Part shown: positions 34,005 to 61,122 of the stretch, one piece after another
Layout: each line of letters opens with the position of its first letter
How positions within the stretch are numbered: the stretch's first letter is position 1
Position numbers and translations under genes: made by a program
Notes under the pieces: model-generated
What the model was told of the DNA's origin: nothing
Seen by the model: only the letters and a program-made list of their open reading frames with translations
Databases searched by the model: none
Origin: Eledone cirrhosa
Taxonomy: Eukaryota
NCBI GenBank assembly: GCA_964016885.1
Contig: OZ024741.1
Coordinates: 352,532,001-352,596,000 of the forward strand
DNA length: 64,000 nt
Direction of reading: 5' to 3'

Positions 34005-34156
34005 ATATATATATATATTAGAATTGTAGCTCTGAAATAGCAATATATATATGGATGTAAATATAATGTATTTTGCAATACACTTTATGCTTAATTAAAA
34101 GCATTTTGAAGACCGTAAGCTATTGTTTTAAAGTAGTGACAAATTCACTCACTTCG

Positions 34157-34248
34157 ATCTCAGCAAACAGGAGGAGATAAGCCGACATGACATGTTTCGC
34201 TTTTGTTGAAGCTTATCAAGGCCAACTACCCCGCCCGTCTGCTGAGAT
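34157..34248 (-). ncRNA. Type I hammerhead ribozyme, family A
   Basis: Reverse complement of the motif at 34440..34531. Confidence 0.85.
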
Positions 34249-34439
34249 TAATGATGTTATATTCTTATAGAAATCTAGTAAATAATCAGGAGCTGATTAT
34301 GCAGAGCGGGTTGTTGGTCAGGCAGAAATTAAAAATTAGAATTGTAGCTCTGAAATAGCAATATATATATGGATGTAAATATACTGCATAATCAGCTCCT
34401 GATTATTTACTAGATTTCTATAAGAATATAACATCATTA

Positions 34440-34531
34440 ATCTCAGCAGACGGGCGGGGTAGTTGGCCTTGATAAGCTTCAACAAAAGCGAAACATGTCA
34501 TGTCGGCTTATCTCCTCCTGTTTGCTGAGAT
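34440..34531 (+). ncRNA. Type I hammerhead ribozyme, family A (U3-A8 core)
   Basis: GCC-TTGATAA-GCTT(caacaa)AAGC-GAAAC-AT(gtc)AT-GTC-GGC, cleavage predicted after 34504. Stem I extends through GGGTAG/TTATCT and ATCTCAGCAGACGGG/CCTGTTTGCTGAGAT. Confidence 0.87.
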
Positions 34532-34756
34532 CGAAGTGAATGAATTTGTCACTACTTTAAAACAATAGCTTACGGTCTTCAAAATGCTTTTAATTAAGCA
34601 TAAAGTGTATTGCAAAATACATTATATTTACATCCATATATATATTGCTATTTCAGAGCTACAATTCTAATTTTTAATTTCTGCCTGACCAACAACCGCT
34701 CTGCATAATCAGCTCCTGATTATTTACTAGATTTCTATAAGAATATAACATCATTA

Positions 34757-34849
34757 ATCTCAGCAGACGGGCGGGGGTAGTTGGCCTTGATAAGCTTCAA
34801 CAAAAGCGAAACATGTCATGTCGGCTTATCTCCTCCTGTTTGCTGAGAT
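34757..34849 (+). ncRNA. Type I hammerhead ribozyme, family A
   Basis: Tandem copy of 34440..34531 with one extra G. Confidence 0.87.
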
Positions 34850-35074
34850 CGAAGTGAGTGAATTTGTCACTACTTTAAAACAATAGCTTACGGTCTTCAA
34901 AATGCTTTTAATTAAGCATAAAGTGTATTGCAAAATACATTATATTTACATCCATATATATATTGCTATTTCAGAGCTACAATTCTAATTTTTAATTTCT
35001 GCCTGACCAACAACCGCTCTGCATAATCAGCTCCTGATTATTTACTAGATTTCTATAAGAATATAACATCATTA

Positions 35075-35166
35075 ATCTCAGCAGACGGGCGGGGTAGTTG
35101 GCCTTGATAAGCTTCAACAAAAGCGAAACATGTCATGTCGGCTTATCTCTTCCTGTTTGCTGAGAT
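35075..35166 (+). ncRNA. Type I hammerhead ribozyme, family A
   Basis: Third tandem copy with an identical core. Confidence 0.87.
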
Positions 35167-35304
35167 CGAAGTGAGTGAATTTGTCACTACTTTAAAACAA
35201 TAGCTTACGGTCTTCAAATGCTTTTAATTAAGCATAAAGTGTATTGCAAAATACATTATATTTACATCCATATATATATATATATAAATATATATTTATA
35301 TATA

Positions 35305-35351
<47 letters not shown>

Positions 35352-35384
35352 TTATATATATATTTATATATATATTTATATATA

Positions 35385-35429
<45 letters not shown>

Positions 35430-35616
35430 ATATTTATATATATTTATATTATATATATATTTTATATATATATATATGAAATTGGAATAAATGCTCTGAA
35501 ATAGCGATATATATGTGAATATAGACATAGAATATTCGAAAATATTCTGTATGTTATAATAAACATTTTGAAGACCTAATCGCTATAGAATAGAATACGT
35601 CACGTATTACAATTAG

Positions 35617-35705
35617 ATTCTCGATAAAAGCAAGGGAAGTAATCTACGCGTTTCATTCTTATTAGAAATCTTCAGGACTACATATCCAGTGCTTTTATCG
35701 AGAAT
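35617..35705 (-). ncRNA. Type I hammerhead ribozyme, family B
   Basis: Reverse complement of 35998..36086. Confidence 0.83.
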
Positions 35706-35997
35706 GACACAGCTAGAGACTTATAGAATACTTAGCTGTGTACAGGAACTGGTTTGAAAGAGCGGTTGCCGGTCCGGCAGAAATTAGAAATTGGAATAAA
35801 TGCTCTGAAATAGCGATATATATGTGAATATAGACATAGAATATTCGAAAATATTCTGTATGTTTATGTCTATATTCACATATATATCGCTATTTCAGAG
35901 CATTTATTCCAATTTCTAATTTCTGCCGGACCGGCACCCGCTCTTTCAAACCAGTTCCTGTACACAGCTAAGTATTCTATAAGTCTCTAGCTGTGTC

Positions 35998-36086
35998 ATT
36001 CTCGATAAAAGCACTGGATATGTAGTCCTGAAGATTTCTAATAAGAATGAAACGCGTAGATTACTTCCCTTGCTTTTATCGAGAAT
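35998..36086 (+). ncRNA. Type I hammerhead ribozyme, family B (canonical core)
   Basis: GTAGTC-CTGAAGA-tTTCT(aata)AGAAt-GAAAC-GC-GTA-GATTAC; palindromic stem III ACGCGT; cleavage predicted after 36058; perfect distal helix ATTCTCGATAAAAGCA/TGCTTTTATCGAGAAT. Confidence 0.85.
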
Positions 36087-36202
36087 CTAATTGTAATACG
36101 TGACGTATTCTATTCTATAGCGATTAGGTCTTCAAAATGTTTATTATAAACATACAGAATATTTTCGAATATTCTATGTCTATATTCATATATATATATA
36201 TT

Positions 36203-36275
<73 letters not shown>

Positions 36276-36322
36276 ATATATTTATATATATTTATATATA
36301 TATATATATATTTATATATATT

Positions 36323-36414
<92 letters not shown>

Positions 36415-36426
36415 TATATATATATT

Positions 36427-36459
<33 letters not shown>

Positions 36460-36648
36460 TTATATATATATTTATATATATATATTTATATATTTATATA
36501 TATATTTATATATTTATATATATATTTATATATATATATTTATATATATATATTTATATATATATTTATATATATATATTTATATATATATATTTATATA
36601 TATATTTATATATATATTTATATATATATATATATTTATATATATATT

Positions 36649-36739
<91 letters not shown>

Positions 36740-36744
36740 ATATT

Positions 36745-38864
36745 TATCCGGAATGATAAAGGTGAGCTTGCCCTCACAAGTGCTGAGAAGAAAGATGCAT
36801 GGAAGAGTCATTATGATAGATTACTAAATGAGGAGAATGCATGGGAAGAAGAGACCCTACCCCACGTAGACCCTATAGAGGGACCAGCAGTACAAGTCAG
36901 CGGCAGCGTAGTAAGTAAGGCAATCAGAGATATGAAGATAGGGAAGGCAACCGGTCCATCGGGTATAGCTGCCGAGATGCTGAAGGCATCTGGGTCTGTA
37001 GGTCACACTATAACCACACGTATCGTTAACCAGGTAATACTAGAGGGGGCCATACCAAAAGATTGGTGCAGTAGCATCATTGTCAACTGCTACAAAGGTA
37101 AAGGCGATGCACTAGATAGAGGAAACTATAGAGGTATAAAGTTGATGGACCAGGTCATGAAAGTAACAGAAAGAGTTATAGCACAGCTGATTAGGGACCG
37201 GGTGAATATAGACGAGATGCAATTTGGGTTTGTACCAGGGAAAGGCACCACTGATGCGCTCTTCCTTGTGAGGCAATTACAGGAAAAGTACCTAGCTAAA
37301 AGTAAGCCACTCTACTTGGCATTTGTCGACCTTGAGAAAGCCTTTGACAGAGTTCCACGTGCAGTAATCTGGTGGGCTCTTAGAAAACTAGGAGTAGATG
37401 AATGGCTTGTGAAAGCGGTACAAGCCATGTATAGGGGAGCAGTCAGCAAAGTTAGGATTGGCAATGAGTATAGCGAGGAATTTAGCGTACAGGTTGGGGT
37501 CCACCAGGGCTCTGTTCTTAGCCCTCTCCTGTTCATCATAGTCCTGCAGGCAATAACGGAGGAGTTTAAGACCGGATGCCCATGGGAACTCCTGTATGCT
37601 GATGACCTCGCACTCATAGCTGAATCTATGGTAGAACTAGAGAATAAATTCCAAACCTGGAAGCAGGGACTAGAGAGAAAGGGCCTCAAAGTCAACATGA
37701 CAAAGACTAAGGTCCTTATAAGTAGACGAGAAAACAGAACCCAGATCCCCTCAGGGAAATGGCCTTGCTCAGTATGTAGGAAAGGTGTAGGTAGGAACTC
37801 CATTCTTTGCCCCAAATGCAAACAATGGGTACACAAGAGATGTAGCGGGATCTCAGGAAGCTTAATTAAGAATGTAGGATTCACATGCAGCAGCTGTGCT
37901 GAAACAGCAAGCAAACAGCCACAGGAAACAAGTACCACCAATCTCTGGGAGGGCCCTGTAGAAACAGTAGACAGCTTCTGCTACCTAGGTGACCGAATTA
38001 GCAACGGAGGTGGGTGCTCAGAAAGTACAATAACTAGGGTAAGAACGGGATGGAAGAAGTTTAGGGAACTACTACCACTGCTAGCTGCAAAAGGCTTCTC
38101 CCTCAGAATGAAAGGCAGACTGTATGATGCGTGTATCCGAACAGCGATGTTGCATGGTAGTGAGACCTGGGCGCTGAAGGTGGAAGACTTACGTAGATTA
38201 GAGAGAAACGAAGCCTGCATGCTCCGATGGATGTGTAACAGTAATATACGTGAACGACAAAGCATAAATGAATTGAGAGAGAGACTGAGCATAAGAGGAA
38301 TCAAATGCTGCGTGCAGGAGAGGCGGTTACGCTGGTATGGACATGTGATGCGTATGAAGGATGACAGCTGCATAAAAAGGTGCAGAGCACTAGAAGTTGA
38401 TGGAAACCGCGGAGTGGGGAGACCCAAGATGACTTGGGATGAGGTGATAAAAGCCGACCTTACCCAACTACACCTCTCAAAGTCAATGACACACGACCGT
38501 GACTTCTGGCGTCACGCAGTAATACAGGGTACCCGACCTCCCATGAGTACATGCTGAAGCATATAAACAATATGCCCCCCCCCCCCCCCCCCCACCGCAA
38601 GGTGGTCGTGGAGGTGCCACGGCAAAAAAGCACCCAGCCCACACTGTCAAGTGGACGTGTAGGCGCCACGAAAAAGCACCCAGCACTCACTGTAAATGAG
38701 GTTGGTGTTAGGAAGGGCATCCAGCTGTAGAAATCAAGCCAGATCAGTTCCTGTATGAGCAAGGCATGGTCAGCCGACCAGACACTGCCCACAACAGGAC
38801 AACCCGTCTAACCCATGCTAGTGTGGAAGAACGGACGTAAAACGGTGATGATGATGATGATGAT
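36745..38864 (+). mobile_element. RTE LINE subfamily B, 5'-truncated (copy B1)
   Basis: Open RT-PHD frame to the stop at 38557, then 3'UTR and (GAT)n tail; both flanks (TA)n. Confidence 0.95.
36746..38557 (+). CDS. RTE reverse transcriptase and PHD finger, 5'-truncated
   Basis: IRNDKGEL...YADDL...CSVC..CPKC..HKRC..CSSC...RRLRWYGH. The upstream IY-rich part of the 806-aa ORF is microsatellite read-through. Confidence 0.85.
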
Positions 38865-60702: not shown

Positions 60703-60741
60703 TATATATATAATATAATTGTTTATATATATATATATACA

Positions 60742-61122
60742 TGGCTTAGTGGTTAGAGCATTGGCCTTGCAATCGAAAGGTTGTGAGTTCAATTCTCAGA
60801 CTGGGCAATGTGTTGTTTCCTTGAGCAAGGTAGTTTATTTCATATTGCTCCAGTTTACTCAGCTGTAGAAATGATATGATAGGGACTGGGGTCCCTATAA
60901 TTCCACTGCAAAGTGGTCGTGGAGGTGCCATGGCAAAAAGCACCCCAGCCCACACTGTAAAGTGGACGTGTAGGCGCCACGGAAAAAAGCCCCCAGCACT
61001 CACTGTAAATGAGGTTGGTGTTAGGAAGGGCATCCAGCTGTAGAAATCAAGCCAGAATCAGTTCCCGTCCCACCCTTGCAAGCAGGGAAAAGTGGACGTA
61101 AAATGAAATGATGATGAAATGA
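60742..61122 (+). mobile_element. CORE-like tRNA SINE with RTE-B-derived 3' half
   Basis: A and B boxes, a tccttgagcaag core, ~160 bp matching the RTE-B 3'UTR, and a ggacgtaaaatg..gatgatg end. Confidence 0.8.

Follow-up and report, generated by a model that had tools for sequence, protein, structure and literature searches.

The closest described systems are the metazoan non-LTR retrozymes and the Penelope-like elements (PLEs). Retrozyme circles have been demonstrated in coral, mussel and axolotl (PMC7229834). In the same study, transcription, cutting by dimeric hammerheads and ligation into circles were shown for these other retrozymes. The return of retrozymes to the genome is, in the available text of three reports, a proposal only (PMC7229834, PMC4209133, bioRxiv 10.64898/2026.07.22.740005). 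The class-level idea, a retrozyme being a non-autonomous PLE, is already in print. The evidence from Xenopus consists of co-distribution and pLTR homology (bioRxiv 10.64898/2026.07.22.740005).

PLEs carry a tail of 30-40 bp, which is often found at one end only (PMC8557442). In the Anolis PLE, this tail lies between two internal start sites of the reverse transcriptase (RT) (PMC11167929). With this element, hammerhead cleavage is unnecessary for insertion in vitro, and uncut RNA is the main substrate (PMC11167929).

The window analysed here is a 64-kb stretch of Eledone cirrhosa DNA. It contains a two-armed element (35478-36188), which is arranged head-to-head (5'-to-5') and flanked on both sides by (TA)n. 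It belongs to a 310-bp hammerhead family, referred to as family B. The features of the locus are as follows.

34017..35279, no strand assigned: family A insertion, 318-bp unit, 1.2 units on the minus strand and 2.8 units on the plus strand
35270..35477, no strand assigned: (TA)n target microsatellite, left flank
35478..35864, minus strand: left arm, 387 nt, 1.25 units, the RNA sense being the minus strand
35478..35515, minus strand: "tail", the ~35-38 nt between both preferred 3' ends, at the left end only
35617..35705, minus strand: second hammerhead copy, core start 35675, predicted cut after 35645
35865..35867, no strand assigned: inner 5'-to-5' junction, 3-nt microhomology TAT
35865..36188, plus strand: right arm, 324 nt, 1.05 units, the RNA sense being the plus strand
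35998..36086, plus strand: type I hammerhead with extended stem I, core CTGAAGA at 36028-36034
36156..36175, plus strand: AGAATATT-TTCG-AATATTCT hairpin, immediately 5' of the short end
36189..36747, no strand assigned: (TA)n target microsatellite, right flank

The outer end of the left arm corresponds to unit position ~167-168, which is the long ("tailed") end. For the right arm, copying of the unit begins with position 117, where the UUCG hairpin has its 3' foot, and the outer end is at position 130 (short end). Related families have a hairpin of different letters at the equivalent position, and the hairpin at 36156..36175 is a candidate RT-recognition element. The inverted arms of the element amount to 285 nt. 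They are not identical: the left arm has a 1-nt deletion in its outer part, near 35555, and the right arm differs from the left arm by a single substitution at 35937. The haplotype of this copy is 284A/294T, with A (not G) at position 276, i.e. 36024.

The plus-strand ribozyme has the hallmarks of type I hammerheads: a CUGANGA core, GAAA, an NUH site, three stems and an open stem I. Its stem II (36035-36048) consists of a U.U at the base (36035/36048), 4 bp and the loop AATA. GAAA is found at 36049-36052, the palindromic stem III ACGCGT at 36052-36057, and the GUA site has its predicted cut after 36058. Stem I is formed by GTAGTC/GATTAC and by a perfect 16-bp distal helix (35998-36013/36071-36086). 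A strict hammerhead scan of the 64-kb window gave two matches, both inside this element. An Rfam scan of the window at the gathering threshold detected no hammerhead. The fold of the 106-nt ribozyme region has a z of -5.56, and none of 200 shuffles was equally stable. Two 11-mers with ACGCGU cofold into a 6-bp helix at -9.5 kcal/mol, so that the palindromic helix III has a predicted dimer form.

An earlier note on this DNA had described the head-to-head architecture (as in family A), the CTGAAGA core, the GUA site, the ACGCGT stem III and the 16-bp distal helix. All of these were found, with a hammerhead in both arms. The expectation of a highly structured RNA was also borne out: the circularised unit folds with a z of -3.9 against 60 shuffles, the three further hairpins named in that note are present, and among 11 relatives, 19/52 predicted pairs, some of stem I and some of stem II, are changed on both sides. 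The note had suggested that the U.U below stem II may lower activity. Whatever its effect on the rate may be, it does not single out this copy as impaired: U.U is the majority state in the 310-bp family, it also occurs in an autonomous PLE of the same genome, and it is shared with axolotl HHR_Amex2, which shows weak monomer cleavage and good dimer cleavage (PMC7229834). The natural variant 287T>A turns the U.U into A-U (L056, L063, L066, L080, L116, L117, L121).

A 22-nt ribozyme motif of family B has 15,002 matches in the 3.0-Gb genome; the reversed-pattern control has 0. The first 100 matches fall into 16 loci, among which 10 show a minus-then-plus arrangement and none the reverse order. The unit is non-coding, of a size between 150 and 450 bp and low in GC; it has one hammerhead and is found as tandem multimers at many loci. 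These are traits of non-LTR retrozymes, to which the family belongs. Its length is 310 bp in 160/176 full units. The 309 bp given earlier hold for this copy, because of the 1-nt deletion in its left arm, and not for the family. The element is also not a rare second element, being one copy among about 15,000 units. Its relationship to family A stood. The earlier note had missed that its ends are of PLE type, as well as what the family as a whole reveals about the template.

The element at 35478-36188 is a single, young copy of a hammerhead retrozyme whose 310-bp unit is non-coding; a PLE enzyme likely inserted it. Arrays of family B reach 26+4 hammerheads, and this copy has only one per strand. 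Because of this single ribozyme per strand, no monomer would be released, and the copy is probably a dead end from which no new circles arise. A read-through transcript of the locus is predicted to fold into a single long hairpin in which the ribozyme is masked, and RNA reads beginning at 36059 would not be attributable to this one locus. The single copy in the window is ordinary and probably inactive. Within the family, nearly all units of a locus have the haplotype particular to that locus, and the units are near-identical.

Family A and other relatives have ~66-80% identity to family B (family A 66-77% over the shared parts). Their hammerhead cores have C3-G8 in some cases and U3-A8 in others, a swap that is known from PLE hammerheads (PMC4209133). 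Contigs from sequencing runs contain the family B unit (4/6 runs examined), and they speak for its presence only. Looped contigs of 340 nt were rejected as evidence for circles, since any tandem DNA repeat yields such contigs. A 340-nt contig of the family B unit was also seen in runs labelled as three other organisms.

The ends of the insertions were analysed at 44 mapped loci (28 plus 16, the latter being the first along contig C1 and not chosen by similarity). Exactly one minus arm followed by one plus arm was found in 33/44 loci; the other 11, which are single-armed, degenerate, noisy or N-gapped, were left out of the end-pairing count, as were two further two-armed loci that extend beyond the fetched stretch. 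In all 31 complete two-armed insertions (31/31), one outer end is short (121-139) and the other is long (158-172). The two orientations are both common (18 one way round, 13 the opposite), and 11 of the 31 come from the 16 loci of contig C1. If the ends were independent, the chance of such a pairing would be 0.5^31. The short and long ends of family B are ~35 nt apart. Nine further two-armed family B loci were inspected: eight are clearly short/long and one is ambiguous. In family A, the same pairing was seen in 10/10 insertions, which had been picked for the presence of both orientations. Most outer ends adjoin (TA)n. At L011 and L090, where the target is not TA, inspection by eye shows target duplications of ~13 nt; such duplications are undefinable in pure (TA)n, including the locus 35478-36188. 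The layout of the ends matches the tail that PLEs often have at one end only.

Autonomous PLEs with RT and GIY-YIG nuclease are present in the genome, with open frames of 938 and 1096 aa that include the RT. There are 10,597 GIY-YIG candidates, of which 150 were scored. We term these PLEs Neptune-like from the Cys motif that precedes the nuclease (after PMC8557442). Their 3' regions carry hammerhead-like motifs, and in the four two-armed insertions in view (L094, L102, L141, L154), the short/long rule is obeyed in 4/4. A local alignment of the unit to 13 PLE 3' regions from 7 families revealed no significant DNA homology (z at most 1.2). When a profile of 8 family sequences was searched against 35 PLE loci, no match was found at the PLE end; there were only nested retrozyme copies or weak matches.

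One Neptune-like family, N2, has 1,552 candidates. Its terminus is CATTTTCCAAT, and its short and long ends lie 38 nt apart; family B terminates in CATTTATTCCAAT, and its ends are 35-38 nt apart. By eye, the final 18-21 nt and the end spacing are alike. From this resemblance of the termini, we tentatively suggest that N2 might be the mobilising partner of family B, although we consider this rather doubtful. Two other PLE families have hammerhead motifs at their 3' regions. N4 (L092, L093, L096, L102, L103) has a 3' hammerhead with CUGAAGA, U.U at the stem II base and the palindromic AGUACU, which is family B-like, and its two ends are ~45 nt apart. N1 (L073, L074, L094, L098) is young, with open frames up to 938 aa; it has a motif with a UUGAAAA core, and its two ends are ~60 nt apart.

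Conserved blocks in the family units are GACCGGCA-CCGCTCT and TTCTATAAG. A U6-type internal promoter was considered and rejected, as the blocks are unlike the DNA upstream of U6 genes (9 distinct regions compared, none with a z above 0.9). A tandem array of ~30 U6-like genes with a spacing of ~1.8 kb is located at C19:31.78-31.84 Mb.

It is almost certain that family B is a retrozyme with PLE-type mobilisation. That the template is a single circle seems probable to us. We likewise have good, though not full, confidence in the combined reading, a PLE-type mobilised retrozyme for which both broken DNA ends copy one circular monomer RNA. The proposed course of events would be as follows. Tandem arrays would be transcribed, cut by dimeric hammerheads and ligated into 310-nt circles, some of which may be A-to-I edited in stem I. 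A PLE protein (reverse transcriptase/GIY-YIG) would cut both strands within (TA)n. One DNA end would prime at ~127-139 and the other at ~160-172 of the same RNA. From each start, copying would roll for 0.3-10 or more turns, and the two cDNA ends would then be joined via microhomology-type repair. For the copy at 35478-36188, this would mean about one turn in each arm. We lean, with less confidence, towards the most specific version, double rolling-circle reverse transcription: a dimeric PLE would use each of two fixed starts once on a single, sometimes edited 310-nt circle.

The haplotypes of the arms bear on the template. The majority haplotype is the same in both arms at 23/28 loci that have full units on both sides. 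The five non-concordant loci comprise three with extra changes in a one-unit arm, one noisy contig and one that is truly mixed. A change in stem I, A276>G, is found in 846 units genome-wide (about 5.6% of units); the first 14 loci listed already show it on five backgrounds. Control changes are rare (A276>C/T 5, T275>C 0, U3>C 2, A270>G 3); two of them would preserve or better the pairing. It is the strand of the ribozyme that has the A>G excess. In 38 arrays that were not chosen for G, 34 are all-A, 4 are all-G and none is mixed; a per-unit null predicts a mean of 18.3 mixed arrays, with a minimum of 10 in 20,000. The simplest reading of these counts is that the array-wide A276>G may reflect A-to-I editing of one monomer, which was then copied repeatedly. 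ADAR sites are depleted of an upstream G (PMC5625713), so that the low count for A270>G, where the A follows a G, fits. However, the preferred downstream base in invertebrates is A, not G (PMC5625713), and the base after A276 differs from this reported preference, which counts against the editing reading. Since A276>G retains a G.U pair, selection may add to the excess. As a sign that the family is expressed as RNA, the A>G pattern is indirect only.

Mixed arrays do exist. Among arrays selected for G, 2/11 are mixed (L112, with 1 A in 13 units, and L115, with 4 A then 9 G), and these are left unexplained by a single fixed template. In L115 (C1:61293000-61299000), the arm with the long end has A276 in its four outer units and G in its two inner units; all seven units of the other arm have G. 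Possible readings of this mixture are a template switch, editing during copying, conversion or an assembly mosaic. In L058, variants recur in non-adjacent units, which points to exchange between DNA copies, to a template of more than one unit or to an assembly error. Both observations would suit a different template, namely an uncut linear multimer or short precursor, which is also mobilised by a PLE and gives arrays that homogenise or expand later in DNA, by unequal crossover and gene conversion. The preference of the Anolis PLE for uncut RNA in vitro (PMC11167929) is in line with such a template, and local DNA amplification is the preferred explanation in bioRxiv 10.64898/2026.07.22.740005. 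Nevertheless, we consider this unlikely. With per-unit editing, ~18/38 arrays should have been mixed and none was. Furthermore, both inverted arms are multimeric, have their haplotype in common and are correlated in length, and the units are near-identical. We thus favour that the multimers are made at insertion and not by local tandem amplification.

The template might also be a cut linear monomer, with the RT jumping repeatedly from the 5' end to the 3' end. This would likewise yield uniform arrays and array-wide edits, and a change of the template molecule would account for L115. It is very unlikely from the positions at which the arms end on the inside: copying of a cut linear monomer should stop within unit positions 1-10, yet none of 66 inner ends is located there, and 6/66 are at position 117, the foot of the UUCG hairpin. 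Run-off at the ribozyme cut site is ruled out by the same count. The arms usually run through the predicted cut site, and the junction GTA|GATT is indel-free in aligned full units, except in contigs that are noisy and in a single array, where an insertion at position 2 is fixed.

The inner joints have inserted bases in 13/33 cases. Where there is no insertion, an overlap of at least 2 nt was found in 13/20 (null 18%, p 4e-6). The two arms of an insertion are not of the same length, but longer arms tend to go with longer ones (Spearman 0.59, p 4e-4, n 31). The end pairing, the joint types and the unequal but correlated arms point to two cDNAs that were joined end to end; a simple fold-back of one cDNA is ruled out by the same three observations. 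A palindrome of DNA-level origin (cDNA fold-back, MITE-like element or satellite), to which the hammerhead is incidental, would be in keeping with the long perfect inverted arms and the AT-rich unstable surroundings, and is yet highly improbable. The arms differ in length and inner position, the outer ends are always different, covariation of the stems is seen between families, whose cores have C3-G8 or U3-A8, and the strand with the excess of A>G is that of the ribozyme. This alternative is largely refuted by the end pairing and the covariation.

Family A has the core UUGAUAA (U3-A8 swap), a longer stem III and 529 motif matches genome-wide. It is a sister family of B, and its copy at 34017..35279 is a separate insertion, located 200 bp away because of the common (TA)n target. 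The two copies are homologous and only 200 bp apart, which might suggest that their two ribozymes work together here as one functional unit. The probability of this is negligible, as each copy is complete and independent, with both a short and a long end of its own within (TA)n, and motif matches differ greatly in number (B 15,002 vs A 529).

Other hammerhead-bearing repeats occur in the same (TA)n neighbourhoods (L031 5736-7250, L036 4653-4778, L041 3387-3393); these have a 464-bp unit or are short palindromic CUGA-N-GA elements. In the window, an open frame at 36749-37498 (plus strand) has an RT match (PF00078, E 2.4e-13) and begins right where the (TA)n run ends. It is a LINE fragment, which we take to be RTE-like. 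A weak tRNA-like match (29.9 bits) at 60740-60803 (plus strand) is probably a SINE head.

This young family offers countable footprints: the strict pairing of two RT start sites, one haplotype per insertion, and editing-like changes that are array-wide. An in-vitro system for PLEs exists (PMC11167929), so that the two-start rolling-circle model can be tested directly. This model may account for the long-unexplained tail and inversion of PLEs. Double rolling-circle copying, if true, would explain both the "tail at one end" of PLEs and the inverted arms, and edits made in RNA at one stem-I site would have been written into germline DNA.

In L1 twin priming, a single RNA is primed from both ends of the target, and microhomology serves to join the resulting cDNAs 5'-to-5'. 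Family B resembles this in its two proposed priming ends and its 5'-to-5' microhomology joint. In L1, the RNA is linear, with priming at its poly(A) end and at an internal site that varies, whereas both putative priming sites of family B are fixed and its arms can exceed the unit length.

Among the open-access papers listed (titles and abstract openings; supplements aside), none describes a cephalopod retrozyme, priming from two starts on a circle, or editing marks in retrozyme arrays. A strict short/long pairing, read as two starts on one RNA, is unstated in the available text of PMC11167929, PMC8557442 and PMC4209133.

Family B is like the metazoan non-LTR retrozymes (PMC7229834) in its non-coding tandem units of 150-450 bp with GC below 50%, its one type I hammerhead per unit, its thousands of copies and its predicted structured circle. 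Circles are demonstrated for those retrozymes, whereas family B is known here from sequence alone. It differs in that most insertions consist of two opposed arms in (TA)n, with 3' ends fixed at two positions; the available text of PMC7229834 does not contain the word "inverted". With the retrozymes described as non-autonomous PLEs (bioRxiv 10.64898/2026.07.22.740005), it shares tandem hammerhead units and the co-occurrence of EN+ PLEs. Unlike those of Xenopus in that report, it has PLE-marked ends and no pLTR homology in the sampled PLE families. Its palindromic helix III, and the U3-A8 variant of family A, are as in PLE hammerheads (PMC4209133). Compared to EN+ PLEs (PMC11167929, PMC8557442), family B has no ORF, and both of its arms are often many units long. 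It is like them in its AT-rich target, with both strands presumably cut and extended (as for Poseidon PAc), in a pair of neighbouring putative RT starts within the unit, which delimit a tail of 30-40 nt at one end only, and in an inverted, 5'-truncated partner copy.
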